Part shown: in pieces, positions 3,184 through 41,425 of the stretch | Layout: every line of letters begins with the position of its first letter | Position numbering within the stretch: the first letter of the stretch is position 1 | Made by a program: the position numbers and the translations under genes | The notes under the pieces: model-generated | What the model was told of the DNA's origin: nothing | Database searches by the model: none | What the model saw: the letters and a program-made list of their open reading frames with translations, nothing else | Assembly (NCBI GenBank): GCA_023265925.1 | Contig: JAHFSD010000001.1 | Coordinates: 3,309 to 67,308 of the forward strand | Source: an archaeon | GTDB lineage: Archaea; Nanobdellota; Nanobdellia; Woesearchaeales; GW2011-AR9 | DNA length: 64,000 bases | Direction: 5' to 3'

Positions 3184-3453
3184 TCACCCAATATCCCGAT
3201 GGGTCGCGTACAGGAAGGCAGCATCTTTGTTCCATTTCCGCAATTCTGCCGCCACTTGCCGCGCGATGGAAAGGGACGTAATTTTATTTCTTACTTTCAC
3301 CCATTTGCTGACTATGCTGCTGATGTGGGCAGCGATTTTCGCACAGCGCTCGTCCGCCATCCCACCGGCAAATAAAGCGGCATAGACCGAGCCGTAAACT
3401 TTCCGCGCATCATAGTGCTGTTTTGTGCCGTTATTTTTAATGACGATGGTCAT
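3184..3453 (-). CDS. stand-alone ATP-cone domain protein
   Basis: The 89-aa product shows the ATP-cone pattern (VIKNNGTKQHYDARKVYGSV..A....A..I...V). Confidence 0.6.
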   Translation of the reverse strand: MTIVIKNNGTKQHYDARKVYGSVYAALFAGGMADERCAKIAAHISSIVSKWVKVRNKITSLSIARQVAAELRKWNKDAAFLYATHRDIG

Positions 3454-3489
3454 GATTCACTTGTTCCAATGAATTACCTTCATTTTTTC

Positions 3490-4209
3490 TCATCCTAAAT
3501 TAATCGTCCCATTCGCTATGAATATCAACAGCCAGCCCAGATAGACGAGCAGCAGACCCATCCCTAGGCGCATATAATGCCGCGTGCGCTGCTTCCAGGC
3601 TTTGATTTCATGGAGTTTCTTGCCGACAGCAACCAGGATGAGGATAATGATGAGTGGCAGTATAAAGATTATGTTGTACAGCACCAGCAATAAAAAAGCA
3701 GTAAAATCAAAGTACTGCGATAATAAAGTTATGATTGCCAGATAGGGAGCGCCCGTGCAGGGTAGTTCTACCGCAGATACGAACGCGCCCAGCAGCAGCA
3801 CGCCCGGAATGGTGGCCTTACTTGACATTACGTGAACTTTCTTGACAAACCGTCCTGGAATTGTCAGCGAAAACCAGCGGCCATACCAGAAGAAATCCTT
3901 AATTTCCAATAATCCTGCTGCCACCATCAGCAGGCCGACGGTAATGGAGAGATATTCGGTCAGCCATAACGGAATCGTCGAGAGGAAATAAAGTAATCCC
4001 AATCCGGCCAGCAGGTAGATGGTAAAGACGGATACTATATATAACCCCCCCAGCAGCAGCATCCGGGAGGTTGACTGCCGCGCGGCCAGCAGCACTGAAA
4101 CCATCAAAATCAAGACGCCAATCGCACAAGGATTGATGGCATCAATCGCTGCCGTAGCCACAACTGTCCCCAGCATTGGTAATAAGGCTTCAACGGCCAC
4201 AGAAATCAC
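3490..4209 (-). CDS. CcdA/DsbD-family thiol-disulfide transmembrane electron transporter
   Basis: There are six or more hydrophobic helices. Conserved Cys residues sit in membrane helices (AINPCAIGVL, ELPCTGAPYL). Confidence 0.75.
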   Translation of the reverse strand: MISVAVEALLPMLGTVVATAAIDAINPCAIGVLILMVSVLLAARQSTSRMLLLGGLYIVSVFTIYLLAGLGLLYFLSTIPLWLTEYLSITVGLLMVAAGLLEIKDFFWYGRWFSLTIPGRFVKKVHVMSSKATIPGVLLLGAFVSAVELPCTGAPYLAIITLLSQYFDFTAFLLLVLYNIIFILPLIIILILVAVGKKLHEIKAWKQRTRHYMRLGMGLLLVYLGWLLIFIANGTINLG

Positions 4210-4391
4210 CCCCTATGATTTCTGGGGCGTCAATCGCAAATCGCCCACCACCGGTCACAGACCGGTGGCCTGCTCGTTTCGCTCGGAGCGATTTGCTCTG
4301 ACCCTGCTTTTTCCAATCAACACAGTCTCGCTGACTAACCACCAGTGAGACACTGGTGGAAAAAGCAGATTCCAAAAATCCACGATTTTTG

Positions 4392-5210
4392 TTAGCCATG
4401 CAGCTCACCCCGCGCTATTGCTGTTTTATAGGATGCACAGAGCTTGTCGGTCTTTTCTTTTTCAGCGGCAAATTCAATGATGAGGCAATCGCCGGGAGGA
4501 ACCAGGCTGGAAGGGGAAAGGACGTAATCGGCATTAGCCTTGAATTGTTCATACTTTCTTCCTTCCGTCTTATAGACAAACACCTGTACCTTTCCAGGAA
4601 AGCCATTACAGGATCCTCCATTACCTGCTTCCACAACGCCGTTATTGGTGGGAACAACTAATTTTTCAGCGGTTAATGTTCCCCCGATAAATTCAAAAAA
4701 GCGGTGCAAGTTGGCATCACCCCGATTCAATACAACTCCCTCGACATGGATGCGGTTGTCGCCGTGCTCATGGAAGACCGGGCTGCCAATGCGGTTAGAT
4801 AAGCCGGTGGGATCACGCAGATCAATCTGTTCCCCGCAGTTCCAGAGCTCAAAATCAGCATGCCAATGGACCGGGCCGCCGGTATGCGAGGTCAGGTTGA
4901 GGTAGATGGTTGTGCCAGCTACATAAAGTGTGACCGCGGCAATCGGCAGGGCCAGGCCGAGGAAGAACAGCCATTTTTGCCGTTCGGTGAACCTTTCCTG
5001 GTAACGCAGGGCGGTAAGCAGAAGAATGATCACAAACAATCCTACTCCGATGGTGACATTCAGTGTCTGCTGTTTCAGGTTGACACCGTGATCAGAGAGA
5101 GCATTGTCGGTAAGATCATTGATCTCTTCAGGAACCTCTTCATGGGCGAGAACACTGAAAAGAACGTTAAAAGTAAGGAGAGCTATAATGAGCAGATATG
5201 ATGCTTTCAT
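4392..5210 (-). CDS. membrane-anchored exported protein with HxH...HEHG...H motifs (function unknown)
   Basis: It has an N-terminal signal and TM helices. The C-terminal domain reads HWHADFELWNCGEQIDL...VFHEHGDNRIHVEG. It lies upstream of, and co-oriented with, the CcdA-like gene. Confidence 0.5.
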   Translation of the reverse strand: MKASYLLIIALLTFNVLFSVLAHEEVPEEINDLTDNALSDHGVNLKQQTLNVTIGVGLFVIILLLTALRYQERFTERQKWLFFLGLALPIAAVTLYVAGTTIYLNLTSHTGGPVHWHADFELWNCGEQIDLRDPTGLSNRIGSPVFHEHGDNRIHVEGVVLNRGDANLHRFFEFIGGTLTAEKLVVPTNNGVVEAGNGGSCNGFPGKVQVFVYKTEGRKYEQFKANADYVLSPSSLVPPGDCLIIEFAAEKEKTDKLCASYKTAIARGELHG

Positions 5211-6217: not shown

Positions 6218-6730
6218 ATGCGCTCCGTTCATTATAATCCTACAACCTTAGATTCCTACGACTTTCTTGATGCCCTGTTATACTTCTCTCTCGCACCGGG
6301 CGATCGGCGCTTTACCAGCCAGCCTCAAGTGCTCTACCAACAGCTCTGTGACACTGTAGTAGAATACGTCACGGAGAGCGAGCCGCGGTTTGAGCCGTCT
6401 TACCGGGAAAAGGCGCTGGGCTACCTGTGGGAGCAGCTCAAAGAAACGCTCGCAGTGCACCGCCTGCAGCCGCGCCTGACGGATGCGCTCGAGAACCTGC
6501 TGGCCGTTTCATCGCTGAAATCAGTTCAGGGCTGTGAATATGTCTATCGCTATTGGGACCATTATTCGACACAGGCTATCACGGACGAAAAACCGGCCCG
6601 GATGAAACCGGAAACGCAGGAGTATGTTACTAAGAAAGTAGTGCCTGCTCTCTCGGCAGCGGAACAGCAGGAATTACTGTCGCTAGGAAGGTTGTTGAGG
6701 AAATACATTAAACGGAGTGAAGAGTGGTAG
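6218..6730 (+). CDS. hypothetical protein
   Basis: 170-aa ORF with no recognised motif. Confidence 0.5.
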   Translation: MRSVHYNPTTLDSYDFLDALLYFSLAPGDRRFTSQPQVLYQQLCDTVVEYVTESEPRFEPSYREKALGYLWEQLKETLAVHRLQPRLTDALENLLAVSSLKSVQGCEYVYRYWDHYSTQAITDEKPARMKPETQEYVTKKVVPALSAAEQQELLSLGRLLRKYIKRSEEW

Positions 6731-6790: not shown

Positions 6791-8155
6791 ATGAAATCTT
6801 TTGACCTAATAGTTATCGGTGCCGGTTCGGGATTAGATGTAGCCGTCGGCGCAGCGGAGCAAGGCCTTAAGACTGCTATCATCGAGGAAGGGCCTTTGGG
6901 AGGAACCTGCCTCAATCGCGGCTGCATTCCCAGCAAGATGATCATTTATTCAGCAGAAGTTGCCGACCTGATTCAGCAGGCCGGAAAGTTTGGCCTTGCT
7001 GCCTCGCTTACAAAAGTTGATTTTAAACAAGTGACCGAACGAGCCAGTAAAACTGTTGATGCTGATGCCCGTTCCATTGAGCAATCCTTACGGCAAGGAA
7101 AAAATCCAGTTTTGTTCAAAGGCCGGGCAAAATTTATCGGCCCACGAATGGTGCAGGTCAATGGAGAAACACTGCAGGGAAGGAAAATCCTTCTGGCTGC
7201 CGGTGCCCGTCCATCTATTCCACCCATTGAAGGATTGGATAAAGTACCTTATCTCACCAGCAAGGAAGCCTTGCGCCTGACCAGATTACCAAAAAGCATG
7301 ATCATTCTGGGTGGGGGATATATTGCCGCGGAGCTGGGTTATTTCTATGCGGCGCTAGGGTGTAAGACTACCATTATCCAGCGCGGCCCCTTGCTGATTC
7401 CCCGGGAAGATCGGGATATCTCAAAATTATTCACCTCGTTGTGGAAGAAGAAATATACGGTGCTGTTAAATGCCTCGGCTACGAAGGTGGAAGGAAATAA
7501 AGACAGCATCACTGTTCAGGTTACTGCCAATAATTCTGTGCGGAAAGTTACGGCAGAAAAATTGTTAGTCGTGACGGGAATCCGCCCTAACAGTGATACG
7601 CTGAATCTGGAAAAAACTGGTGTGAAAACAAATAAAAATGGCTTTGTAGTTGTCAATAAATATCTGGAAACTTCTGCTAAGAACATCTGGGCACTGGGCG
7701 ATCTGGCTGGCGTTTACCTGTTTAAGCATTCCGCCAATCTGGAAGCGGAATATGTGCTAAATAATATCCTGGACAGGAAAAAGCCGGTTGATTATTATCC
7801 GATGCCTCATGCGATCTTTACTAACCCGCAAATCGCCGGCGTGGGCTTGACCGAGCAGGAGGTTATCAGGCAGAAGAAAAAGTATGTGGTGGGGAAATAT
7901 TATTACCAGCACACCGGGATGGGCGCCGCGATGGAAGAGAAAGATGGCTTTGTGAAACTTATTGTCGATAAAAGAAGCAAGGAAATTCTCGGCTGCCACC
8001 TCCTGGGACCGGAAGCCTCGATTTTATCGCATGAAGTGGTGGTGGCAATGAAGGCAAATAGAAGAAAAGCATTGGAAATTCTGAGGAGTGCTGTACATGT
8101 CCATCCGGCCTTGAGTGAAGTGGTGCACCGGGCGGCACTGAGTGTTCCACTATAA
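6791..8155 (+). CDS. class I FAD-dependent pyridine nucleotide-disulfide oxidoreductase (dihydrolipoamide dehydrogenase / glutathione-mycothione reductase-like)
   Basis: It has the FAD motif DLIVIGAGSG, the redox-active disulfide GGTCLNRGCIPSK, a second Rossmann segment IILGGGYIAAE, and a C-terminal dimerisation HP motif (VHVHPALSE). Confidence 0.85.
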   Translation: MKSFDLIVIGAGSGLDVAVGAAEQGLKTAIIEEGPLGGTCLNRGCIPSKMIIYSAEVADLIQQAGKFGLAASLTKVDFKQVTERASKTVDADARSIEQSLRQGKNPVLFKGRAKFIGPRMVQVNGETLQGRKILLAAGARPSIPPIEGLDKVPYLTSKEALRLTRLPKSMIILGGGYIAAELGYFYAALGCKTTIIQRGPLLIPREDRDISKLFTSLWKKKYTVLLNASATKVEGNKDSITVQVTANNSVRKVTAEKLLVVTGIRPNSDTLNLEKTGVKTNKNGFVVVNKYLETSAKNIWALGDLAGVYLFKHSANLEAEYVLNNILDRKKPVDYYPMPHAIFTNPQIAGVGLTEQEVIRQKKKYVVGKYYYQHTGMGAAMEEKDGFVKLIVDKRSKEILGCHLLGPEASILSHEVVVAMKANRRKALEILRSAVHVHPALSEVVHRAALSVPL

Positions 8156-11647: not shown

Positions 11648-12808
11648 CTACCTACTCTTAACTTGCATATATTCAATCCCTAACTCCTCTTCCATCGCAC
11701 TCTTCCGCTTCAGGAAGAATTTGTTGCCTTCGCCAAAGATCTGCTCGGATTTCACTCCCGTAATGATCAGCATCGTTCTGATCGTTTTGTCTAAATCCTT
11801 GTAAATCTGCGCGCCCCAGATGATCTTCGCTTTCTTATCCAGCCGCTCAGCCACGGTTTCCACAATCTTTCTTGATTCATCCAGCGTCAGGCTTTCCCCG
11901 CCGGAAATGTTGATCAACGCTCCGGTCGCATTGCTTACATCCACGTCAATCAGCGGATTATCCAGCGCTTTCTGCACCGAATCATCAGCCCGGTTTTCCG
12001 CATCGGATTCGCCCATGCCTATCAGGGCTACCCCTCCTTCAGCCATGATCGCTTTAACATCGGCAAAATCAAGGTTGACTAATCCAGCTTTGGTCACCAG
12101 TTCAGCGATTCCCTTGACAGCATTGGTTAAAATCTCATCAGCGACTTTGAAGGCGGTCTGTAATGGCAGGTGGGGAGCCAATTCCAGCAGCTTTTCATTG
12201 GGAATAAGAATCAGCGTGTTAATGCTCTGTTCTAATTTTTCCAGCCCGATCATCGCATTTTCCTGGCGGTGCGAGCCTTCCATCATGAACGGCATGGTTA
12301 CAATGGCGACGCTCAGCACACCCATCCGCTTGGCCATATTGGCAAGATAGGGAGCGCTTCCTGTCCCCGTCCCGCCACCCAGGCCACAGGTAATGAAAAC
12401 CATGTCCGCCCCTTCCAGTGCTTTTTTCAGTTCCGGCTCGCTTTCTTTGGCTGCTTCTTCCCCAATCTTGGGATTAGCGCCGGCTCCTAATCCGTGCGTC
12501 AGTTCCCGGCCGATCAGAACTTTTCGGTCAGAACTGGTATAAAGCAGATCCTGCGCATCGGTATTCACGGCGACGGTCTCAATGCCTTTAATCCCCACTT
12601 CCGAGATGCGGTTGATGGTATTATTACCGGCACCACCACAGCCAATGACGCGAATCCTGGTTTTCTGGCTGGCTAACAGTTTTTCCAGTTCGGCGTCAAT
12701 CTCCAGATTACTGCGCCGGGTCAGCTCTTTATGGGTAAGAACTTCCGTTTGCACTTTAGGCGGGCTGGCAGTGGAAGGATATTGTGTCCGAAAAGCAGGA
12801 TAATCCAT
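11648..12808 (-). CDS. ftsZ: cell division GTPase FtsZ
   Basis: It carries [12 protein letters not shown], the tubulin signature GLGGGTGTG, and the NLDFADV T7 region. Confidence 0.95.
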
Positions 12809-12883: not shown

Positions 12884-13546
12884 TTATGAACTTACTTTTC
12901 CCCATTCCACGCCCTTCAACCCCGTCAATTCCGCCAGTTTCTTCCCCAATTCTTCCGTAAAAGGAGCCGGCAACTGAAATGGCAACTGAATGGTCGCTTT
13001 TCCTTCCGCAATTTCCACATTTATCTTATCCTCAGGAATTCGCAGGCCCATGTTCAGGAAGGCAGTGATCTGCTCTTTCTGGTCGGTCACCTGGCGGAGA
13101 ATTCTGATTTCATACACCACCTCTTTTCCGGCCAGAGGATGGTTGAAATTGACCATCACTCTCCCGCCGGAGACTCTCGCGACGGTTCCCATCTCGCCAT
13201 CCACGTCAATCTGCAATCCCGGCTGGGGCTCCGTCTGATGCTCGCGGAAGGTGCCCATCGGGATAATTTTCATTTTTTTGATATCTCTTTTGCCAAAAGC
13301 CTGTTCCGGTAGAAGTTTGATGGTGTATTCTTTTCCCACTTCTTTTCCCACCAGCTGCGCATCCAGCCCGGGAAGAATCTGCTGTTCTCCGACGCAGATG
13401 ACCACGGAACCGAATTTCTTGTTAGCGGTAGGCAGGTTATGCTGCTTTGCCACTTTTTCACTGGTGGTGTCAAACAACGGGCCATCAGCCAGTCTGCCAG
13501 TGTAATCGAGTTCGATGAAGTCGTGATGCTGAATGTGGTTGGGCAT
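12884..13546 (-). CDS. FKBP-type peptidyl-prolyl cis-trans isomerase (long archaeal SlyD/FKBP26-like)
   Basis: It has the FKBP core (IELDYTGRL.DG..FDTT, ..HPLAGKEVVYEIRIL) with an insert-in-flap region and a C-terminal domain. Confidence 0.85.
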   Translation of the reverse strand: MPNHIQHHDFIELDYTGRLADGPLFDTTSEKVAKQHNLPTANKKFGSVVICVGEQQILPGLDAQLVGKEVGKEYTIKLLPEQAFGKRDIKKMKIIPMGTFREHQTEPQPGLQIDVDGEMGTVARVSGGRVMVNFNHPLAGKEVVYEIRILRQVTDQKEQITAFLNMGLRIPEDKINVEIAEGKATIQLPFQLPAPFTEELGKKLAELTGLKGVEWGKVSS

Positions 13547-13570
13547 TTTCTGAGCATTCCAGATAATTCT

Positions 13571-14155
13571 TTATAAGCTTTTCTTCTCTGCTGTTTTCAC
13601 AAAATCGAGAATTCTCTGTGCCGCCTCTTCCGCCATAATTTTGGTCGTATCCACCACCAGGTCATACTGCGACTCGTCATAGGGATCGATGCTATAATAT
13701 TTCTGATACCGCTCGGTGTCATTCTGTTGCCGGCGCCGAATGTCTCGCCGGGCATCCTCTAAAGAATTGATGTTCCCTTCATTGCGTTCAGCCCGCGCGA
13801 CGGCGTTTTGCAGATCCTTCCAGATGCGCCTCGCGCCTTCGTCAAAATCACACTTGATATAAATCTTGATGGACTCCGGAAGGAAATGATATTGTGTCCG
13901 GCCTTCCACAATAACAGTTTTTCCCTGCTGATGTAACTGGCGGGCAGACGCTGCTGCTTTCTGATCAACATCGACATCCGTCTCCGGGTGCGTTTGGGCA
14001 TACTCATTCAACTCTTCCAGAGTCATTCCTTTTTCTTTAGCCAATTCCCGCCGGATGCCACCGACATAAATCCGTTCGGCCTGCAGCCGTTCCACCAGGC
14101 TCTTGGCAACCGTGCTTTTCCCACTGCCGGGCGTGCCGGAGATGGTCAGGATCAT
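13571..14155 (-). CDS. cmk: archaeal-type cytidylate (CMP) kinase
   Basis: It has the P-loop ISGTPGSGKST. Its length (~190 aa) and pattern (RELAKEKGMTLEEL..., YDLVVDT) match archaeal cmk. Confidence 0.8.
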   Translation of the reverse strand: MILTISGTPGSGKSTVAKSLVERLQAERIYVGGIRRELAKEKGMTLEELNEYAQTHPETDVDVDQKAAASARQLHQQGKTVIVEGRTQYHFLPESIKIYIKCDFDEGARRIWKDLQNAVARAERNEGNINSLEDARRDIRRRQQNDTERYQKYYSIDPYDESQYDLVVDTTKIMAEEAAQRILDFVKTAEKKSL

Positions 14156-24689: not shown

Positions 24690-24691
24690 TC

Positions 24692-24970
24692 ACTTCCCCT
24701 TATTCCGGCCCCTTCTGCGTACTTCCTGTAACCGCTCCAGAACCTTCCCAGCATCGGTATTTGCAGCATACCGTTATGGTAATGGAAGAAACGGTTGCTG
24801 CAATTGCCGGGCTTGAATCATCCGATAGTCAAAAGTACACGTTCTCCGCGCTATCGCCTCCAATCCACTCTGCACCACCCATTCTAAAGCAGTTTCGGGG
24901 GAATAATTTCGGGAAATGAGATGATGTACTCTCCCACCTAAAACCATCCCTTCGTTCAGCTTCGTTTCCT
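24692..24970 (-). pseudogene. decayed partial duplicate of the HAD-hydrolase 3' region fused to the last ~80 nt of bud32
   Basis: The minus strand of 24692-24775 translates to ..DAGKVLERLQEVRRRGRNKGK*, against intact Bud32 ..DAGKVLERLQEVRKRGRNKGK*. By eye, 24795-24970 aligns with 26790-26965 (..gaatcatccgatagtc.., ..cccattcta.., ..agatgatg.actctcc.accta..). Confidence 0.65.
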
Positions 24971-25037
24971 GCCGCCAACGCTAGTTATCACTACAAAAAA
25001 CAAAAGATTTAAATATTTGTAGTACTAACCAGGGCTC

Positions 25038-26012
25038 ATGTCACCCGTTACCATCAAAACCATCAAAGGAAAGAAATATGCGTATTTGGAAAAATCAGTA
25101 CGTCTGGGTGCTACGGTGAGAAAAGTATCTCATTATCTAGGCCCGGCCCCGCCTTTCTCCAGATGGAAAGTAGCGGAAGCAACCGCCGAATACCAAGAGG
25201 AATTTCTACAGAAAGAGGTCGTGTTGCGAATGCAGCAAATTCAGGCTACGATAACCAGCACTTTTCCTCTCACGGAAGAAGAAATAAAGAAGATAGAAGA
25301 GATGAATGTTAAATACCGACAGATCATGAAGAATCTTCATCCTAAAAGCAGAGAGGATCTCAACAAACGCTTCGTGGCCAATTATGTCTTTGAAAGTAAT
25401 GCTCTGGAAGGGAATACTCTAACCCTTAAGAATGTTGCCGAAATTGTCTTTGAGAAGCGGATCAGTTCCGGCCAGGATCTTCGGGAAATCTATGATGCCC
25501 AGAATTCCTATAACTTGTACTTATACCTCCAGAAAACCAGGCAGGAAATAAATTCCGATTTTATCATTAAAATTCATGCCTTGCTGATGGATAAAATAGA
25601 TGATCGGCTGGGGTTTCGAAAAGTTCCCATCATGCTGGTGGGGAAGCCCATGACGCTCCTCAGTAAGCCAGAAGAGGTGGAAAAAGAGATGGACAATTTA
25701 GTTAAGTGGTATCGAAAACAGAAGGGAAGATCATACCCCTTAGAACTAGCTTTTAAGTTTCACGCTAAATTTGAAAAAATTCACCCGTTCTGTGATGGCA
25801 ATGGGCGGGTAGGGCGATTTTTGTTGAATTATATCCTGCTAAGAAAAAAGTATTTTCCGATCATTATCCGGAAAACAACCCGGAATAGTTACCTGAACGC
25901 GCTGGAAGCCGCTGATCAGGGGGCCTGGATCGTGCTGATGAGATTTGCGCTGAAACATTATAAAGAAACGTTCCGCAAGTTCTTTGAAGTTTATTATCAA
26001 TATGCCAAATAA
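25038..26012 (+). CDS. Fic-family protein (AMPylase class with N-terminal intramolecular inhibitory helix)
   Basis: It has the Fic motif HPFCDGNGRVGR. The upstream SNALEGN fits the (S/T)xxxE(G/N) inhibitory motif. Confidence 0.9.
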   Translation: MSPVTIKTIKGKKYAYLEKSVRLGATVRKVSHYLGPAPPFSRWKVAEATAEYQEEFLQKEVVLRMQQIQATITSTFPLTEEEIKKIEEMNVKYRQIMKNLHPKSREDLNKRFVANYVFESNALEGNTLTLKNVAEIVFEKRISSGQDLREIYDAQNSYNLYLYLQKTRQEINSDFIIKIHALLMDKIDDRLGFRKVPIMLVGKPMTLLSKPEEVEKEMDNLVKWYRKQKGRSYPLELAFKFHAKFEKIHPFCDGNGRVGRFLLNYILLRKKYFPIIIRKTTRNSYLNALEAADQGAWIVLMRFALKHYKETFRKFFEVYYQYAK

Positions 26013-26058
26013 GTTAGTACTACATAAAATAGGAATAATGAAAAGATGTAGTGGTAAC

Positions 26059-26667
26059 TCACTTCCCTTTATTCCTTCCCCTTTTTCTTACTTCCTGTAA
26101 CCGCTCCAGAACCTTCCCAGCATCGGAATATGCTTCTTTGTATCCTTCCACTACCTTTTCAAACAGCTCGGGATGCTGGTGATGTGCGCTCTCCAAAGCC
26201 CGCTCTAACAAGTACAAATCTACCGCCTTGTCTTCCACTTTCCCGGAAAAAGAGGACAAGCCAAAGTCAAGAAAATGCAGCTGTCCCGTCTCAGCGTGCT
26301 GAATCATGTTAGACGTGGTCAGATCACCGTGGATGATATCGTTCTGATGGAGTTTTCCCACATTGTTCCCCATTGCTGCGGCCAGCTGGGTATGGTCATC
26401 CCCTTGCTGTAAGACGCTTTTCAATTTCTCTCCCGGCACCACGTCCATGATGAGAGACATCCGTTTATCAGAAAATTCCCGCAGGTGCGGAGCAGGGAAA
26501 TTCAGCTCTTCCAGTCTTTGCAGCACTTTGGCTTCCCTTCTGGTGCGGAATTTCCGCAAGGCCTCGTCGAGATGAGGAAGACGATAAGCTTTACTCAATC
26601 GTTCTTTGATGATGGTGCCTCGGTCCTCATAGAGTACTGCTTCGGCGCCATGGGAAATCTTGATCAT
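26059..26667 (-). CDS. bud32: Kae1-associated kinase Bud32 (KEOPS subunit)
   Basis: It is a small RIO-like kinase: GAEAVLY, catalytic IIHGDLTTSNMI, and DFGLS. The start was moved to the ATG at 26667 (MIKISHG). Confidence 0.85.
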   Translation of the reverse strand: MIKISHGAEAVLYEDRGTIIKERLSKAYRLPHLDEALRKFRTRREAKVLQRLEELNFPAPHLREFSDKRMSLIMDVVPGEKLKSVLQQGDDHTQLAAAMGNNVGKLHQNDIIHGDLTTSNMIQHAETGQLHFLDFGLSSFSGKVEDKAVDLYLLERALESAHHQHPELFEKVVEGYKEAYSDAGKVLERLQEVRKRGRNKGK

Positions 26668-26698
26668 AGAGTGGGAGAATACCTGGACTATAAATACT

Positions 26699-27628
26699 TT
26701 ACCCCCAAATCTGCGTCGGCCGGCTGCGCTCCTGGCAGTCACCACAATTCTGAAGGTGCCGGGAATATAGCTCGATCTGCTCCTGATTCCGCAAATGCTG
26801 CAGCTGCAGGGCCTGAATCATCCGATAGTCTAACGTGCAGGTCCTCTTCGCTATTGCTTCCAATCCTCCCTGTACTACCCATTCTATGGCCGAGTTGGCA
26901 GAATAGTCCCGCGGCACCAGATGATGCACTCTCCTACCTAAATCCCGCTGCGCACGAGCCAAATCGGCTTCATTTCCCTTCTCATAGACGCCAATCGCCA
27001 GTCCGCCCCGTTCACGAACGAAATTAAACTTTCGCTTATCCGATTTACCATCGCCAAAGACAATGACGTTCTCGTACATGAATTTATATTGATCAATCGG
27101 CAGATCTTCATGAACATCTTTCCCCTTGCAGATTTTAATGATTTCTTCGCGCTTATTATTGGGGTCAACAATGGTTTTAATGCGGTCAAGGTCTCTTGCT
27201 CCTTCCAAAAATGTCCCGGAACGAAGGGAGGCCAAGTACGGTGCAATCATCGTCCCTTGAATCAGTGGCGTAAATCCGGCACTGACGACGTGATGTTCCA
27301 AATCCAATCCCTGTTGTTCTGCATAAGCGGTGATGCGGGGGAACCAGTCCGGCAATCCCGGCGCTAACCTGATTTGTGGGGCATAGACCGTTCTCATCGA
27401 TTCGTTGCTGATATCAGTAAAAATATCCCGGCAATCAATCAGGATCTGCTGCATGGCGCCCACGCCGATATCGATGCCTTGGCCACTACAGAGTTTACCA
27501 AAATAATCATCAATTTTGGTGATGCCGTGCTTTTGCTCAATCTCCCTGGCAAACTGGCGCAGGATAGGAAATTGCTGGTATTCCTCGGTCAAGGTCAGGT
27601 CAAAGTCGTAGATGCAGGCGACGTTCAT
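26699..27628 (-). CDS. HAD-superfamily phosphatase
   Basis: It has motif I IYDFDLTLT, motif II HVVSAGF, and motif IV GDGKSD. The start was moved to the ATG at 27628 (MNVACIYDFD). Confidence 0.75.
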   Translation of the reverse strand: MNVACIYDFDLTLTEEYQQFPILRQFAREIEQKHGITKIDDYFGKLCSGQGIDIGVGAMQQILIDCRDIFTDISNESMRTVYAPQIRLAPGLPDWFPRITAYAEQQGLDLEHHVVSAGFTPLIQGTMIAPYLASLRSGTFLEGARDLDRIKTIVDPNNKREEIIKICKGKDVHEDLPIDQYKFMYENVIVFGDGKSDKRKFNFVRERGGLAIGVYEKGNEADLARAQRDLGRRVHHLVPRDYSANSAIEWVVQGGLEAIAKRTCTLDYRMIQALQLQHLRNQEQIELYSRHLQNCGDCQERSRPTQIWG

Positions 27629-31834: not shown

Positions 31835-32179
31835 ATGAAAGAGCAGGAACAGCTTTTAGAGGAGAATATTCGCGAATTTTACACCCAAGGAGAGGAATCG
31901 CTCACCAAGCAGAAATATAATGCCGCCGTGAGTCTCTTCTTCAAGGCGCTCGCGGTACTGGCAGATTGGCATCTGCTTAAAACAAAAGGGAGAATTCCTA
32001 AAAGCCACTCGGAACGATTTCGTATTTTAGAAGAAAAATACCCTGAACTCTATGAGCTTCTCGACAAGGATTTCCCTGTTTATCAGGACAGTTATCAAAT
32101 TAAAATAAGCAAAGAAATTGCGGTGGTGTTAGAAAATGATGTTCGAACCGTTGCACAAAAAGTTGGCTTCTCACTCTGA
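31835..32179 (+). CDS. HEPN-domain protein
   Basis: 114-aa helical protein with KYNAAVSLFFKALAVLADWHLL and an Rx4H-type motif (GRIPKSH). It is adjacent to a nucleotidyltransferase gene. Confidence 0.6.
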   Translation: MKEQEQLLEENIREFYTQGEESLTKQKYNAAVSLFFKALAVLADWHLLKTKGRIPKSHSERFRILEEKYPELYELLDKDFPVYQDSYQIKISKEIAVVLENDVRTVAQKVGFSL

Positions 32180-32690
32180 ACTTCTCCTGGGGGTGTGGGA
32201 TGTTGTCGTGTATGGATCCGCAGTTCGCGGAAAATCAAAGCCGAGAGATATTGATATTGCTGTGCTCATGGCCGGGAAAATCATTGCCAGTAAGAAATTA
32301 TATCTCGCCCAGCAGTTTCGGAAAAATCTGGGAGGTGATGTTAAAGTTGTTGATCTGGACGACTTTCTCAATCCGGGATTCCTGGCACGACAGGCTATTC
32401 TCGCCGAAGGCTACTCGCTGTTAAAAAAAGATTATTTGGCAGAACGATTTGGTTATTCGGCCCTTGCTCTCATCACCTACACCTTAAAAAGCCTGCCTTT
32501 ATCCAAGCAGAAATTATTATACTATGCTCTGCAAGGCCGGAAACGCGGTACGGGAGTATTAGCAAAATTAGGCGGAAAAATAATAGGTAAAAGCCTCTTG
32601 GCCGTGCCGACAAAACATTTCGAGAAACTTAAAGACTTGCTGCAGCAACATCAGGTAGAGTTTGAAACCAGCTTTACTCTTCAATATTAA
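32136..32690 (+). CDS. nucleotidyltransferase (MNT-like) with C-terminal extension
   Basis: It has the Pol-beta NTase motif VVVYGSAVRGKSKPRDIDIAVLM. The track ORF overlaps the HEPN gene by 44 nt, so a later start is possible. Confidence 0.75.
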   Translation: MMFEPLHKKLASHSELLLGVWDVVVYGSAVRGKSKPRDIDIAVLMAGKIIASKKLYLAQQFRKNLGGDVKVVDLDDFLNPGFLARQAILAEGYSLLKKDYLAERFGYSALALITYTLKSLPLSKQKLLYYALQGRKRGTGVLAKLGGKIIGKSLLAVPTKHFEKLKDLLQQHQVEFETSFTLQY

Positions 32691-33955: not shown

Positions 33956-34008
33956 CGAGTTTCGCTGCGGCTCAACTCGAGGGGTTCAGCAGGCGCCGTG
34001 TACTAAAA
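33956..34008 (+). repeat. 53-bp direct repeat, copy A (left boundary of the 34.1-38.7 kb islet)
   Basis: CGAGTTTCGCTGCGGCTCAACTCGAGGGGTTCAGCAGGCGCCGTGTACTAAA matches 38761-38813 at 52/53 positions in the same orientation. Confidence 0.9.
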
Positions 34009-34107
34009 CAATTAATTTTTTATAAACTTTCTGTTCATTTTACTTTAGAGTAATAAAATATCCAATGATATGTTTAAATATCAGCGTGGTTCTTCTAGCA
34101 TTTCTCA

Positions 34108-36333
34108 ATGAAAAAAAGAGTAGTAAACCCCTCTAAGTACATTATCATTTCTGTAGTGCTGATTTTCATTTTATTGGTCATTGGCTTATTGTCTTTGGGG
34201 CCTTTCTTGGACAAAGTAGCAGCCCAGGTAAAAACAGTAATAAAAGCAAAGACCCCAACATCGGAAGTGGATATAGCTCTTTCTCCTATCCCTGACAAAA
34301 CCTATGTTACGACGGCAAAACTATTACGTCCTCGTTTTGCCAGCGGGGTTCATGTTCGCAATGAGTTAAAAAGTTACCTTACCAGTTTTACCGCAGGAAA
34401 ATATGATGAAGCTGTACATAAAATAATCTCTTTTCAGGGAGAGATCAATCCCTTTGATTTATCCACCCTTCTAGAAATAGATACAGCCCTTGCCGATTCC
34501 ATTGCCAAAGCAGCAGGTACCGTAAAATTAGCTAAGGATTTTAGTACTGAGCGTAAATCCTGTGAAGCTTTCAATGGTCTCCTTAATCCTTCTCTTCTCA
34601 TCATGGATCTTACGTTATGGAGCGGAAAATCGGAACTATATCTAGCTTTACAACAGAATAGAGATGTAGGAATGCAATGCTTATTCTACTATCCTCAGCT
34701 CAGCCACGGGATGGTGACGTATGATGTGAGAACGGGAAGGATTGTGCAAAGAAGTGCCTTCTGCGATCCTTCCGAAACGAAAAGCAAATGCTTCGGCGTT
34801 TGGGATTACTTCTGGAAGTTTGCGGTTGATCCGAGGGAGGGACCAATCAATTATGGTGTGGGATGTAGTCTAACCGACTGGATGAATCAGGGGTTTATCT
34901 GTACGCACGGGGTTGATATTCGAAATAATACAATGATGATGAACACTATCTTCTCCCTCGATGGCACTGCACTGCTCCACATTGACGTCAAAGATGAATT
35001 TCAGAATGCCTTAGGCGCCAGCGGAAAAATGATCATTGACAACGTCAAACAGAAATGCGCCAAAGTGAAGGAAAAATCATCCAAATACGGCAGTATTGTT
35101 CCTGCATTAACGGGAGCAGGGAGTTCTCTGACGGGCGGAGTTATTTCCACAGCTACAGCTGCCACCGGCACGGGAGAAGGCCTCAAGGAGGAATACGAGA
35201 AAGCGATGCTGTTTGCCTCGTTGTTCTCAGAAGCTTGTACAGCAAACCCGAGCGATTTAGCCAAGGATTTAGCCGGTGGAGGAGGAGCAGGACAGTTTGG
35301 GTTAAATAAACCGAATGCCTGTATTTTATCGGACGTGAAAGAGGTTAGTTCCAATGGATTACAAGCAGAAAAAGCCTGTCTTGATCATTTCTTTGGTCCC
35401 AGAGGACTGGAACAGGTGCAGAATCTGGATGGGCTTCCTGACAATTGGTGTATGCCTTCTGCTTCGCAAAGTGGTTCGCAATGTACTGATATCTCCTGTT
35501 TGCTCCCCGGAGGAGATAAGGGGTGTGGTTCTGACGGCACCAAATGCGGCAGGGAACCAACCAAACAGGAAGAACAATATCTGAAAAATGCTGGTGCGGG
35601 AGCAGTGGGGGAAAAATGGCGCGTCGTGGATACACGAAAAGAGATCGACGAAATTTGTGGAAGAAAACTGGGAGCGAGCGCCGCAGCTTGTTCTAGTCAG
35701 AGCACGAAAACAGCGTACGTTCTTAAAGAGAATATTAAAGCTAGTCCCAAGGATCCAACCACCGCACCTTCGCCAAAAGGTGGCGGAAAAGTTTACACTT
35801 TTCAAGCTTTGGTAAAGCATGAACAGAATCATATTACTAAAGATGATCCTAAAAAATCGGTTGATGAGAATGATCAAGTTCGAAAAGAGGAGGATAAAAA
35901 AAATTCTAAGAATTTTGTCAATCCTCCCAAAGGAGAGCCTGCCCCCGATGGCTTGGAACCGGATGAATGCTCCGCCCAGGCTCAAAAAGTGAATGCTTTC
36001 GCCGATTGCCTGGACAAATCCCAGTTAAAAAATATTGAACAGCCTAATGGTCTTGCCCCTGCTAGGGGTGGGTCAGCACCTGATCCTGCTCCACCCGGAG
36101 AGGAAGTTGGTGGTACAACTGTGCCAAAATGCGATGAAACGAGTAAAAGTGGTGGAGCAGGCGGATATTTTGGAACAAAAGAGAATTCGGCAGATGATTG
36201 CATTATTGGCGATTTCTGTGATTTTGGCGGTTCTGTATTGGGCGGTCGAATGGGAACACCAAAAATCTGCCAGCAGGTCGAAAGTACTGGAGAAGGAAAA
36301 GAACCTCCCTGTCCGGGCTTAGGCAATGACTAA
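34108..36333 (+). CDS. large secreted/signal-anchored Cys-rich protein of unknown family
   Basis: 741 aa with an N-terminal TM/signal anchor (IIISVVLIFILLVIGLLSLG) and many Cys throughout. The last ~115 aa form a Cys-rich module that recurs at 37369-37692. Confidence 0.7.
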   Translation: MKKRVVNPSKYIIISVVLIFILLVIGLLSLGPFLDKVAAQVKTVIKAKTPTSEVDIALSPIPDKTYVTTAKLLRPRFASGVHVRNELKSYLTSFTAGKYDEAVHKIISFQGEINPFDLSTLLEIDTALADSIAKAAGTVKLAKDFSTERKSCEAFNGLLNPSLLIMDLTLWSGKSELYLALQQNRDVGMQCLFYYPQLSHGMVTYDVRTGRIVQRSAFCDPSETKSKCFGVWDYFWKFAVDPREGPINYGVGCSLTDWMNQGFICTHGVDIRNNTMMMNTIFSLDGTALLHIDVKDEFQNALGASGKMIIDNVKQKCAKVKEKSSKYGSIVPALTGAGSSLTGGVISTATAATGTGEGLKEEYEKAMLFASLFSEACTANPSDLAKDLAGGGGAGQFGLNKPNACILSDVKEVSSNGLQAEKACLDHFFGPRGLEQVQNLDGLPDNWCMPSASQSGSQCTDISCLLPGGDKGCGSDGTKCGREPTKQEEQYLKNAGAGAVGEKWRVVDTRKEIDEICGRKLGASAAACSSQSTKTAYVLKENIKASPKDPTTAPSPKGGGKVYTFQALVKHEQNHITKDDPKKSVDENDQVRKEEDKKNSKNFVNPPKGEPAPDGLEPDECSAQAQKVNAFADCLDKSQLKNIEQPNGLAPARGGSAPDPAPPGEEVGGTTVPKCDETSKSGGAGGYFGTKENSADDCIIGDFCDFGGSVLGGRMGTPKICQQVESTGEGKEPPCPGLGND

Positions 36334-36341
36334 AAGAATAC

Positions 36342-37301
36342 TTAAAACATCATTAGAGGATAGTTCTTGGCAGGAACATGAGTTCGTACCTCCCTGAGGC
36401 ATTTCTTATTCTTTCCACATAACTCTTTCATAATTTCTTTATAGAATGGTATTAAATCTCCCCAAAGGTTCTGTACCGCATCATAATATTTACCTTCTTT
36501 AACAGATTCTTTAGACTCTTTCACCAATCTTTGATATTCTGGCGATTGCATAATGAGGCTTCTCCCTCTTTCTTTATTTCCCAAATACCATTCAATCTTG
36601 CCGGCACTCCAGTAATTTCCCTTTTGTAGGTTCTCATCCCGTATGGCAGCAAGCTCTTCCAGTGGCGTTAGTTTAATAATCTCTTCAGCAGCATTCCACC
36701 TTTTACGAAAATATTCACGAGCTTTGTTCAGGTATTCCTTAGACTTTTCAGCATTTTTATTAGAGTAATATTCTGATAAATGGTAATAGATCCGGGCTGT
36801 CCCGGCAAATCTTCCCCGCTTTTTATAATGCTCAGCACTATCTTCCATCAGCTCTTGGTATTTCTCTGAATCATTTTTATATTTACAATTGGCAAGATTG
36901 ACATCCAAGTAAATTAAATCATCCGTCGTGCTCCATACTACATGAATCATTCCCGTGGTTGTGGCAGTAGGAAGAGCTGCCTCCGCCATGGCAAGCCATT
37001 TTAGGAGTTCTGCATGTTCTTTCTTTATTTCCCCCTCATCACATACCTTTTTTATTCCTTCTACTTTGATATTTTTCTTGTTGATAAATGGCTGGGCAAT
37101 TTCAAGCGTATTGATGTAGTGCCAATAAGGGTCTCTCTTAAGGAGTTGTCTTTGCTTGCTTTCTTCCGTTTGATGTTCTCGTGCTGGCTGCAGTTCGACT
37201 GTTTCTGAACGCTGAGTTTCATAGCTACAGTGCTGAGCAGCAAGGGAACTCAGACCAATCAGCCCGGCCAACGTTAAGGAAAGGGATAATTCCTTCATCA
37301 T
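36342..37301 (-). CDS. exported helical-repeat (TPR/Sel1-like) partner protein, paralogue 1
   Basis: It has a signal/lipobox-like N-terminus (MMKELSLSLTLAGLIGLSSLAAQHC) from the ATG at 37301. It is convergent with, and 8 bp from, the stop of the 741-aa gene. It is paralogous to 37696-38646 (LANCKY, AEHY, SAGK.EW..GNKER blocks). Confidence 0.65.
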   Translation of the reverse strand: MMKELSLSLTLAGLIGLSSLAAQHCSYETQRSETVELQPAREHQTEESKQRQLLKRDPYWHYINTLEIAQPFINKKNIKVEGIKKVCDEGEIKKEHAELLKWLAMAEAALPTATTTGMIHVVWSTTDDLIYLDVNLANCKYKNDSEKYQELMEDSAEHYKKRGRFAGTARIYYHLSEYYSNKNAEKSKEYLNKAREYFRKRWNAAEEIIKLTPLEELAAIRDENLQKGNYWSAGKIEWYLGNKERGRSLIMQSPEYQRLVKESKESVKEGKYYDAVQNLWGDLIPFYKEIMKELCGKNKKCLREVRTHVPAKNYPLMMF

Positions 37302-37368
37302 AGTGATAACTGGAAGTGTGCAGTTTATATAAATATTTTGGTTCATTATTCGCAATGACAGAATAGGG

Positions 37369-37692
37369 GAATCGGATGAATGCTCAACCCAGACACAGAA
37401 AGTGGATGCAGTTGCTAATTGCTTAGAACAGTCTCAACTGAAGGATTTATTCGAGAAAGAAGGAAGAAAGCCTGTACCTGACCCCTTTCCACCAGGAGAT
37501 GAAGTTGGTGGCGTTTCCGTGCCAGGCTGTGGACAGCAAGGGCACAAAACCAGCCTTAAAGATGGGGTTACTGACTGCCTGACTGAAGACGTATGCCTAC
37601 AACCTATGGGACTCGTTTCAGGGGGTATGATAAATCCCAAATGCCAGGCGGTGCAAGGTGCAGAAGAAGGACTGCAGTGCCCGTTTAAGTAA
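37369..37692 (+). pseudogene. orphan, start-less copy of the C-terminal ~110-aa module of the 741-aa protein
   Basis: Its translation is ESDECSTQTQKVDAVANCLEQSQLK...PPGDEVGGVSVPGC...PKCQAV..EEGLQCP. The gene end at 35950-36333 reads PDECSAQAQKVNAFADCLDKSQLK...PPGEEVGGTTVPKC...PKICQQV..GKEPPCP. Homology begins 33 nt upstream of the only candidate start (GTG 37402), and an in-frame stop lies at 37330. Confidence 0.6.
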
Positions 37693-37695
37693 ACG

Positions 37696-38646
37696 TTAAA
37701 ATTCCTCTAATTTGTATGATAAGAGCTGGATACGGCAGTGCTGATTAGGGCATAATTCCTCAACAAGTTCCCGATAGAATGGAATTTTTAATTTATTCCA
37801 CAAACAGTGGAAGGCTGGTTCGTACCTCTGATCAGCAATAGCACTTTTAGCTAGTTCTAATTCGCGCCTAAACTCTCCTGATTGTCTCATTAATTCTTTT
37901 GCTCTCTCTTTATTTCCCATAACCCATTCTGCTTTTCCTGCGCTTAAGAGATCACCGCGCTTCAAATAGGAGTCTCTCAGTGCTGGCAGTTCCTCTGCCA
38001 TCGTGTAGGCAATTGCTCCTTCGGTGCTGTACGTCCACTGGGCGAAGAAATCACGAGCACACTGCTTATCGCCTGCAGCCAGGCAGGCCCGGCCAGCATC
38101 ATCAAATGCTTCCACAAGGGCATAATGCTCGGCAATTTCATGGAGGAAATCGTTCCATTTCTGAGTGCCGGAATATTTACAGTTCGCTAGTTTTCTATCA
38201 AGATCAACCAGTTCGTCAATAAGGTCAAACAGTGAATGAATCTCGCTGGTAACTCGAACATCAGCAGCTCGTACCGCTATCTTTCGCCGTGCCAGCACCT
38301 CAGAAAGTTCTCGATGCTTATCTCTAATTTCCTCTTCGTCGCAGTCACTTTTAAGATTATGAAGATCCGGATTAGCATTAAAAAAAACGAGATTATAGTC
38401 GGGAGTATCAAGGAGAAAATTCAAGTGGTTGGTATAATCATCAATAAACTGTTCTTTAACAATGGGATCAGGTCTGTTCTTTTTAGTTGCTGGTGGCGTG
38501 ATGTAATCTTGTCTCCCTGAATTTTCCAAAAGTTGACGTGGAGAAACAACGTGAGCAGTGGAACCTATTGACTTATTCCGAAAATAAAGATAGCCACTTA
38601 ATAATCCTACCAGTCCTAATCCTGCCAGCAGATACTGTTTTTTCAT
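37696..38646 (-). CDS. exported helical-repeat partner protein, paralogue 2
   Basis: It has an N-terminal TM anchor from the ATG at 38646 (MKKQYLLAGLGLVGLLSGYLYF). It is convergent with, and 3 bp from, the orphan module stop. It aligns with 36342-37301 over most of its length. Confidence 0.65.
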   Translation of the reverse strand: MKKQYLLAGLGLVGLLSGYLYFRNKSIGSTAHVVSPRQLLENSGRQDYITPPATKKNRPDPIVKEQFIDDYTNHLNFLLDTPDYNLVFFNANPDLHNLKSDCDEEEIRDKHRELSEVLARRKIAVRAADVRVTSEIHSLFDLIDELVDLDRKLANCKYSGTQKWNDFLHEIAEHYALVEAFDDAGRACLAAGDKQCARDFFAQWTYSTEGAIAYTMAEELPALRDSYLKRGDLLSAGKAEWVMGNKERAKELMRQSGEFRRELELAKSAIADQRYEPAFHCLWNKLKIPFYRELVEELCPNQHCRIQLLSYKLEEF

Positions 38647-38760
38647 GGGGTCCCGTCTCCCTAGCACATACCCTGTCTCTATCGATGGAAGTCTGCTTCT
38701 CTCCAAGGCTTTCTTATATTTATAACTTTGCCCCACCTGCCTCTCTCTTGTGAACTACCA

Positions 38761-38813
38761 CGAGTTTCGCTGCGGCTCAACTCGGGGGGTTCAGCAGGCG
38801 CCGTGTACTAAAA
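38761..38813 (+). repeat. 53-bp direct repeat, copy B (right boundary of the islet)
   Basis: It matches 33956-34008 at 52/53 positions (one A/G difference) in the same orientation. It lies between the thrS stop and the start of 37696-38646. Confidence 0.9.
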
Positions 38814-40881: not shown

Positions 40882-41172
40882 TTATTCTTCTGCCGTTGGC
40901 TGCCATTGATAGACAACATCGTGATGGCCGTAATACCACAGCTCGATAACGTGGCGTTGATGATCCACCTTGAAAATGAGCACGAACGAGTTATCGATAT
41001 GGACCCGATTAAATCCCGACAACGGAGCTCTCAGGAATTTATAGCCAACAGGAGTTTCCCGAATCTTTTTTACCTTGTTATTGATTATCTGCAACTGTTT
41101 CTGATTCTTCTTGGCCAATTTTGCAAAAATCTTATCGGCCTCGGGCTTAATCTCCAGGTCGTACATCAGCAA
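40882..41172 (-). CDS. RelE/YafQ-family toxin
   Basis: 96 aa matching the RelE-fold family pattern: ..AKKNQKQLQIINNKVKKI...P......L..PL.G..RVHI...FVLIF.VD......I.L..YGHHD. Confidence 0.75.
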   Translation of the reverse strand: MLMYDLEIKPEADKIFAKLAKKNQKQLQIINNKVKKIRETPVGYKFLRAPLSGFNRVHIDNSFVLIFKVDHQRHVIELWYYGHHDVVYQWQPTAEE

Positions 41173-41185
41173 TCATCTCTTTACA

Positions 41186-41425
41186 CTAAAAACTTTTGAA
41201 TCCATACCGCTTCACAAAATCATCTACCCGGATACTTTTCTGCTTGCCGATTTCCTTCATTTTTTGGCAAAATTCCGGCCGCAGTTCGGGTTCCTCTTCC
41301 AGTTCGATATACTCAGCTACCACCAGTTTTATCGCCTCACTTTTATCTTTGAGTGCATACTTCGCTTTTACCACATTAAGTACCCGATTAGTGCTTTCAT
41401 CCAGTTCGACCAGTGCCTGAACCAT
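41186..41425 (-). CDS. cognate antitoxin (archaeal DUF2683-like)
   Basis: The 79-aa gene lies directly upstream of the RelE-like gene. Its N-terminus is VELDESTNRVLNVVKAKYALKDKSEAI. Confidence 0.6.
   Translation of the reverse strand: MVQALVELDESTNRVLNVVKAKYALKDKSEAIKLVVAEYIELEEEPELRPEFCQKMKEIGKQKSIRVDDFVKRYGFKSF

Follow-up and report, generated by a model that had tools for sequence, protein, structure and literature searches.

A repeat-bounded islet with a recurrent two-gene module for candidate cell-surface proteins in a DPANN archaeon

The window analysed here is a 64-kb stretch (64 000 nucleotides) of archaeal contig JAHFSD010000001.1, in which two 53-bp direct repeats enclose an islet of exactly four elements: a gene for a 741-aa membrane-anchored, Cys-rich protein (the big gene), a convergent gene for an exported partner protein (partner 1), a start-less fragment that corresponds to the C-terminus of the big protein, and a second partner gene (partner 2). 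The two repeat copies differ by one mismatch (98% identity) and are the only ones within the window, and a 53-nt repeat match arose in 0 of 100 shuffled sequences. This layout had been described in an earlier note made from the sequence alone, and it is borne out here, as is the archaeal nature of the host: the flanking ThrRS contains the archaea-specific editing domain. Relatives are found in 'Nanoarchaeota archaeon' metagenome-assembled genomes (MAGs) from the Hainich groundwater well H51, and the host itself is a member of the DPANN group. The window is contained in an ENA contig of 81.9 kb. The G+C content of the islet (0.36-0.48) is below that of the flanking genes (around 0.50-0.53). New here are an HExxH...D motif upstream of an eight-cysteine (8-Cys) tail in the big protein, the conservation of the big gene and its partner as a two-gene module, and an insertion signature with target-derived repeats.

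The islet genes and their products

Searches of Pfam, NCBIfam, PADLOC and PHROGs returned no significant match for any of the four products, and profile searches of PDB sequences with the big-protein and partner alignments gave nothing significant. On the basis of these searches the products belong to previously undescribed protein families, in keeping with the earlier note, which had recognised none of them. The big-protein family is very small: 10 clusters were found among 5.8 billion proteins, and an exhaustive profile search of 1.84 billion gave 19 representatives. For the partner family, two word-indexed searches yielded 3-4 proteins only. The combination of big gene and partner was found mostly in DPANN MAGs.

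The AlphaFold2 (AF2) model of the big protein, built with 20 sequences and having a mean pLDDT of 59.5, places a helix (aa 8-29) at the N-terminal anchor. In the alignment, a conserved N-domain (aa ~50-330) is followed by a G/S/T-rich linker, a conserved block (aa 360-450), a variable region with an HExxH motif, a charged linker, and a C-terminal module with eight conserved cysteines. Neither the fold of the N-domain, compared by Foldseek, nor the model of the big protein as a whole, compared with PDB and BFVD, has a match with E<0.001.

In the C-terminal module no enzymatic motif had been recognised in the earlier note. This holds, but in the big protein itself an invariant HExxH at residues 571-575 had been missed. 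In a sub-alignment of 13 sequences sharing 15-29% identity, H571, E572 and H575 are invariant and D589, a candidate third ligand, is at least 90% conserved. The AF2 model puts the motif on a helix (565-577) and D589 on another (585-598), and over residues 480-610 it predicts first a strand and a helix, then four strands and, last, these two helices, which is the layout of a minimal zincin. The islet protein would resemble zincins of the gluzincin and aspzincin types in having its invariant HExxH on a predicted helix after a small beta-sheet and an acidic residue 14 positions downstream on the next helix; unlike them, its domain is set in a Cys-rich ectoprotein and has no significant profile or fold match. 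Single members of the family gave sub-threshold matches only, to the peptidase families M91, M35, M90 and astacin, and the PDB profile search gave one chance-level match only, to peptide deformylase (E 1.7).

The two partners are paralogues (35% identity, E 3e-39) with conserved Cys pairs. Their N-termini, in which leading K/R residues are followed by 13-21 uncharged and moderately hydrophobic residues, resemble signal peptides, in agreement with the export signals attributed to them previously. The AF2 model of partner 1 is all-alpha, with 16 helices and a core pLDDT of ~78. Its best Foldseek matches, to alpha-SNAP and the TPR region of kinesin light chain (KLC-TPR), are weak (E values of at least 4e-3, TM ~0.2), with no PDB match at E<0.001, and a Pfam SNAP match at 9.9e-5 lies below the curated cut-off.

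TATA-like boxes stand at both ends of the islet and face inward. The one upstream of the big gene is a candidate promoter, judged by its fit to archaeal promoter geometry, and the open frame of the start-less fragment begins within the TATA-like element upstream of partner 1. The coordinates of all these features are given in Table 1.

Table 1. Features of the islet, in window coordinates
Feature	Position	Strand	Remarks and basis
Left 53-bp direct repeat copy	33956..34008	.	Non-coding, 5' of big gene; sharp boundaries, without ORF
TATA-like box (TTTAAATA)	34073..34080	+	28 nt upstream of big gene ATG; read from sequence
Big gene	34108..36333	+	741-aa membrane-anchored Cys-rich ectoprotein (24 Cys); homologues and alignment
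N-terminal transmembrane anchor (aa 11-34)	34138..34209	+	Sole hydrophobic segment, 24 residues, KD19 3.33
Conserved N-domain (aa ~50-270), motif FNxLLNPSLLVMDLTLW	34255..34917	+	Invariant columns; AF2 pLDDT 80-97
Predicted zincin-like subdomain (aa 480-600)	35545..35907	+	AF2 pLDDT 70-87; sub-alignment
HEQNH, the HExxH motif (H571, E572, H575)	35818..35832	+	Translation; 45 residues upstream of C-terminal module
D589, candidate third ligand	35872-35874	+	14 residues downstream of HExxH
C-terminal 8-Cys module (aa 617-741)	35956..36330	+	Conserved Cys framework in alignment
Hypervariable tip (aa 707-741)	36226..36330	+	Follows conserved ...DDCIIGDFCDF
Partner 1 (319 aa)	36342..37301	-	Predicted exported all-alpha protein, possibly TPR/SNAP-like; family searches, AF2, Foldseek
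AT-rich TATA-like element, function inferred	37324..37335	.	23 nt upstream of partner 1 ATG; read from sequence
Start-less C-terminal fragment ('orphan' module)	37333..37692	+	41% identity, E 5e-22, to big-protein residues 617-734
Partner 2 (316 aa)	37696..38646	-	Paralogue of partner 1, intact ORF, signal-like N-terminus; sequence comparison
TATA-like element, function inferred	38713..38726	-	Upstream of partner 2; read from sequence
Right 53-bp direct repeat copy	38761..38813	.	Non-coding; 60 nt downstream of (-) ThrRS stop

Recurrence of the module, its fragments and its variable tip

Besides the window, the module has been sequenced at L001/L007, L002/L003/L009, L004, L008 and L013, and the contigs encoding the big proteins P0003, P0006 and P0007 are represented by gene calls only. 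A convergent partner gene follows directly after the big gene in every locus with sequence or gene calls; on the three contigs with gene calls only, these convergent neighbours are 262-311 aa long and have no Pfam match. A partner homologue also adjoins the gene of the distant homologue P0017 (hhalign E 4e-45), but in divergent orientation. One MAG, H51-bin332_1, contains four paralogous module loci. The partners diverge faster (mostly 27-42% identity) than the bodies of the big proteins of the same genomes (44-59%).

A partner homologue beside P0020, a more distant and probably bacterial relative, was considered and rejected: the convergent neighbour there is an unrelated secreted beta-rich protein. 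P0020 itself (L014, 5001-9905) is a GC-rich distant homologue with extra N-terminal PA14-like regions, and its neighbour, a secreted protein of 526 aa that looks beta-rich and repeat-like by eye, replaces the TPR-like partner. Other arrangements were seen upstream of the big gene. In L010 (9377-10852, P0009), from one MAG, it is fused in frame to what looks like half of an ion-transport protein, by eye the N-terminal, voltage-sensor-like one; in L004 the big gene is directly preceded by an intact Ion_trans gene; and on the P0003 contig this place is taken by a gene of similar size (289 aa, no Pfam match).

The fragment between the two partner genes of the window is, as had been claimed, a start-less copy of the C-terminus of the big protein. 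Its homology to the big gene starts at about 37368. It contains no in-frame ATG, the sole in-frame start being GTG 37402, past the first conserved Cys, and the hypothetical product from that codon has no signal peptide. The first 47 aa of the fragment are 89% identical to the tail of P0005 and 54% identical to that of the resident main gene; for the second half, P0007 is the closest. The fragment is therefore not a diverged local copy; by these identities it is a mosaic of the tails of other lineages.

Orphan pairs of this kind, which the earlier note had proposed to look for in related genomes, were found in L001 and L004. The L001 array consists of three units: the main gene with its partner; a start-less tail fragment (6360-6629) with an intact partner; and a scrap of a tail (7570-7686), which shares 77% identity with the tail of a paralogue from that genome, with a partner scrap. 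In L004, an open, 5'-truncated big gene of 412 codons (3300-4535) is followed by a partner and further scraps. The breakpoints of the fragments differ between the loci, so the events were independent. Furthermore, positions 4981-5136 of the L001 main gene are 100% identical, over 156 bp, to positions 6379-6534 of the fragment, and this tract ends exactly at the variable tip. It represents gene conversion between fragment and main gene and is direct evidence of recombination.

The Cys framework of the tail is common to all members of the family, and the variation is confined to the last ~35 aa. When the identities of tip, body and partner were correlated over nine module/partner pairs, tip identity was found to be unrelated to body identity (rho 0.00). 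P0002, for example, shares 75% identity with the window protein in the body and 72% in the partner (P0013, adjacency inferred) and only 43% in the tip, and its tip is 72% identical to that of L008. The tip is therefore exchanged by recombination and, as far as sequence identities can tell, evolves independently of the body, whereas the partner tracks the body and not the tip. A recombination 'hinge' conserved in the DNA was rejected, as third-position identity at ...DDCIIGDFCDF is not raised between distant loci.

Plain local tandem duplication followed by decay would offer a simpler origin for the second half of the islet: a segment of ~1.35-1.4 kb, comprising the 3' end of the big gene and the partner, would have been copied in place, the fragment would be a pseudogene and the flanking repeat unrelated. 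The paired similarity blocks are indeed regularly spaced (1333-1413 bp), the fragment lacks a start codon, L001 and L004 have partner and tail scraps in visible decay, and synonymous sites at the 'hinge' are not conserved between distant loci. However, the fragment is nearer to the P0005 and P0007 tails than to the resident main gene, at 41% identity its frame is nevertheless still open for 119 codons, L001 and L004 have this layout too, with different breakpoints, and the conversion tract in L001 is active. A purely local duplication is unlikely because of the mosaic origin of the fragment.

In L004, a direct repeat of 340 bp (96% identity; 11799-12138 and 13063-13402) was also seen; it covers the start of each of two small genes that lie downstream of the module.

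Flanking repeats and insertion sites

Self-comparison of each locus revealed that, in four of the five independent loci, the module and any fragments that go with it lie between direct repeats. In addition to the 53-bp repeat of the window, these are repeats of 48 bp in L001/L007 (94% identity), 146 bp in L004 (98.6% identity) and 49 bp in L008 (90% identity). Their sequences are unrelated among the four loci and their boundaries are sharp, and the inserts of 3.1-4.8 kb contain the module only. In three of the four repeat-flanked loci, one of the repeat copies forms the authentic 3' end of a host gene: the C-terminus ...DVEVLVNW and stop of a 683-aa gene in L001, the last part of the ion-transport gene in L004, and the end of an asparaginase-like gene, stop codon included, in L008. 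The ORFs of the loci include no recombinase, integrase or transposase, a repeat search of the region showed no inverted repeats at the islet's ends, and visual inspection revealed no end motif common to the four loci. With differing, target-derived repeats in four of five loci and no recombinase inside, the module therefore behaves as a discrete insertion, and the flanking repeats are, to judge from their sequences, insertion scars derived from the target. The earlier note had missed both this nature of the repeats and their recurrence at other loci.

A tRNA or structured RNA was considered as an explanation of the 53-bp repeat and rejected, ARAGORN having found 0 tRNAs and Rfam 0 families at the gathering threshold in the whole window. 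The repeat folds no better than shuffled sequences (z -1.5 to +0.3) and has no coding potential. It is absent from all other loci examined, and no search for it was made in public collections.

The islets share with integrase-type islands flanked by att repeats the feature that one repeat copy is the native 3' end, or the downstream region, of a host gene. The repeats could then be attL and attR of an integrated virus or plasmid whose integrase has been lost, the four genes being cargo such as a receptor-binding protein, and the low G+C content of the islet relative to the flanking genes would be in line with such a remnant. However, in and beside all five loci there is no integrase, capsid, terminase or replication gene, and no match to PHROG or BFVD was obtained. 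No tRNA serves as target, the repeats differ from locus to locus (48-146 bp), so that four repeat sequences and lengths would need four different integrases, and the cargo consists solely of the two-gene module. In view of this insert content, a decayed virus or plasmid seems to us most improbable. The islets also differ from transposons, which they do not resemble in either transposase or terminal inverted repeats; their duplications, of 48, 49, 53 and 146 bp, are not of fixed length.

A second repeat-bounded islet of the same geometry was seen in the window. Its insert (24765-26058) contains a Fic-domain gene (25038-26012) and lies between 75-bp repeats with 89% identity (24690-24764 and 26059-26133), of which the right copy is the 3' end of a (-) RIO1-type kinase gene (26059-26745). 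As the Fic gene is bracketed likewise, gene gain in this lineage appears to proceed generally by long target duplication at the ends of genes. The Fic islet region is overlapped by a 150-bp direct similarity (76% identity; 24796-24945 and 26796-26945) with a spacing of 2 kb. In L008, a 47-bp perfect direct repeat (13553-13599 and 13659-13705, 106 bp apart) resembles the 3' half of a tRNA (GTTCGAATC...) and may be the att remnant of another element.

On either side of the four-element islet, at 31835-32690 and 40882-41425, are small gene pairs that look like toxin-antitoxin pairs. In one of them a 114-aa ORF overlaps a Polbeta-type nucleotidyltransferase; in the other a 96-aa ORF (RelE/ParE-like by eye) stands beside a 79-aa DUF2683-like ORF. 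The neighbourhood of the islet appears to be a variable region.

Comparison with known systems and possible function

The organisation of the islet can be compared with that of polymorphic toxin systems with orphan cassettes, such as CdiA-CT/CdiI and Rhs-CT/RhsI (Zhang et al. 2012, PMC3482391). Both have a large protein destined for export, in which the body is conserved and the C-terminus recombines. Its gene is closely linked at the 3' end to a small gene for a partner and is followed by C-terminal fragments that lack a start and come each with their own partner gene (here in the window, L001 and L004), and main gene and fragment share a tract of homology through which exchange can take place. 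In the polymorphic toxin scheme, 'releasing peptidases' sit just upstream of the C-terminal module (PMC3482391), which is the position of the predicted peptidase domain of the islet protein. In contrast, the islet protein has none of the FHA, RHS, T5SS, T6SS or T7SS trafficking parts (type V, VI and VII secretion systems) covered by Pfam, NCBIfam and PADLOC, and has a transmembrane anchor only; its tail is a single 8-Cys module with a ~35-aa variable tip; and the host is archaeal and all the families are unannotated. The analogy with CdiA-CT and Rhs orphan arrays drawn in the earlier note thus holds at the level of architecture, which recurs in L001 and L004, but the assignment to the CdiA/Rhs families fails, and the toxin/immunity reading is unproven.

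VARTIG of Thermococcales is likewise an archaeal locus with an organisation like that of polymorphic toxin systems, and encodes a large secreted protein whose C-terminal domain is hypervariable by inter-genome recombination (Makarova et al. 2021, PMC8416519). VARTIG has Ig domains and variable sets of downstream genes, whereas the islet has no Ig-type Pfam match and a fixed TPR-like partner; the HExxH domain, the start-less fragments and the target-derived flanking repeats also set the islet apart from VARTIG.

The reading that we prefer, and in which we place about even confidence, is that the islet is a discrete insertion with a mobile, lineage-specific two-gene module for conflict or recognition at the cell surface, organised like a polymorphic toxin system and accompanied by displaced remnant cassettes. 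The first gene would encode a type-II membrane-anchored, disulfide-rich ectoprotein in which a cryptic protease subdomain of zincin-like type (HExxH...D) and a charged linker lie between a novel N-domain and an 8-Cys tail, the last ~35 residues of which would be shuffled by recombination. The second, always found with the first, would encode a Sec-exported TPR/SNAP-like alpha-solenoid that most likely binds the product of the first gene outside the membrane and neutralises or escorts it. Protease activity of the big protein, binding of the partner to the tail, and an antagonistic or recognition function are what we infer for the module.

The start-less fragment and partner 2 would be the 3' remnant of another allele, displaced when the present allele was installed upstream. 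Partner 2 may have stayed intact because it is still of value, like an orphan immunity gene; the fragment is probably silent, yet could donate sequence to the main gene by gene conversion. The displacement model accounts for the nature of each fragment, as the 3' end of a big gene that meets the 3' end of the partner belonging to it, and for the increasing decay of the units away from the main gene. The 53-bp repeats would have arisen with the arrival of the module, by duplication of its insertion target downstream of ThrRS. Either a factor supplied in trans may have inserted the module at breaks with a wide stagger, or a circle bearing a short stretch of the target may have integrated through a single crossover (Campbell-type).

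Several results weigh against this reading. L002/L009 has no detectable flanking repeat. The empty site with a single repeat copy, a search for which the earlier note had suggested, was not found, nor was an excised form: an exact look-up of the flanking Pro_dh gene gave, besides the contig itself, only a short one that stops ahead of the repeat, so mobility is deduced from the repeats only. By its sequence the tail is a single homologous 8-Cys module throughout the family rather than an assortment of unrelated toxin folds; searches of Pfam, NCBIfam, PADLOC, PHROGs and PDB revealed in it no domain of a toxin or other effector, and the AF2 model is uninformative for the tail (pLDDT <35 at aa 633-741). 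Foldseek and profile searches gave no peptidase with E<0.001, although the Foldseek query was the full-length model, which may dilute a small HExxH domain. Because of this, the assignment as a zincin-like protease, based on the motif and on a medium-confidence model, is held to be well motivated but unproven. Partner identity correlates with body identity (rho 0.59) rather than with tip identity (rho 0.21, not significant), and in the case of P0002 the tip has been exchanged without exchange of the partner. Of the earlier proposal that C-terminus and matching partner are swapped together by recombination with a cassette, the exchange of the C-terminus is supported by the L001 conversion tract, the mosaic fragment and the behaviour of the tip, but strict adjacency-level co-variation of tip and partner was not seen in the available pairs. 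The partners, finally, are convergent and exported, unlike typical CdiI and RhsI.

The existence of a single kind of tail without alternative toxin folds, the failure to detect tip-partner co-variation, the export of the partners and the convergent gene order leave a role in recognition or attachment open. It is possible, though on the doubtful side, that the two genes encode a host-attachment or recognition complex and not a weapon. The ectoprotein would then be an adhesin or processing protease of an episymbiotic DPANN cell on its host or kin, and the TPR-like partner a co-receptor or chaperone; variation of the tip would serve kin discrimination, the range of hosts or evasion of viruses for which the protein is a receptor, and the fragments would be a reservoir for antigenic-type variation, or mere debris. 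That no toxin domain has been found, that the partner follows the body rather than the tip and looks secreted, not placed like a typical immunity protein, and that a small genome can hold several paralogous loci would all suit such a complex, as would the analogy with the hypervariable surface module VARTIG, for which recognition roles have been proposed (PMC8416519). However, effector/immunity systems are the more typical setting for intact extra partners beside start-less tails and for a mobile pair, an enzymatic effector is suggested by the invariant HExxH, and in the close family there is no adhesin-type repeat and no Ig or lectin domain.

A more specific version of the conflict reading may be put forward as a speculation, rather unlikely as it stands. 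DPANN archaea would possess a recombinase-less mobile cassette of a kind not recognised before, inserted at the 3' ends of host genes with target duplications of 48-146 bp, and one of its cargoes would be a contact- or proximity-dependent weapon, in which a membrane-anchored zincin releases or presents a disulfide-rich tail, an exported TPR-like protein confers immunity, and specificity is switched by way of silent cassettes.

To our knowledge, next to nothing has been learnt of the ways in which DPANN archaea compete with other cells, recognise them or attach to them, and we know of archaeal polymorphic-toxin-like systems only from sequence surveys. The present locus, whose module exists in several copies per ~1-Mb genome, is a compact and testable case, with an invariant candidate catalytic motif, a recombining tip, spare cassettes and fresh insertion scars. 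Target-derived repeats of variable length, found also around the Fic gene, point to an undescribed route of gene gain in reduced genomes. If the module does serve as an effector with its immunity protein, or in recognition, the logic of cassette switching would be extended to episymbiotic archaea with entirely new protein families.

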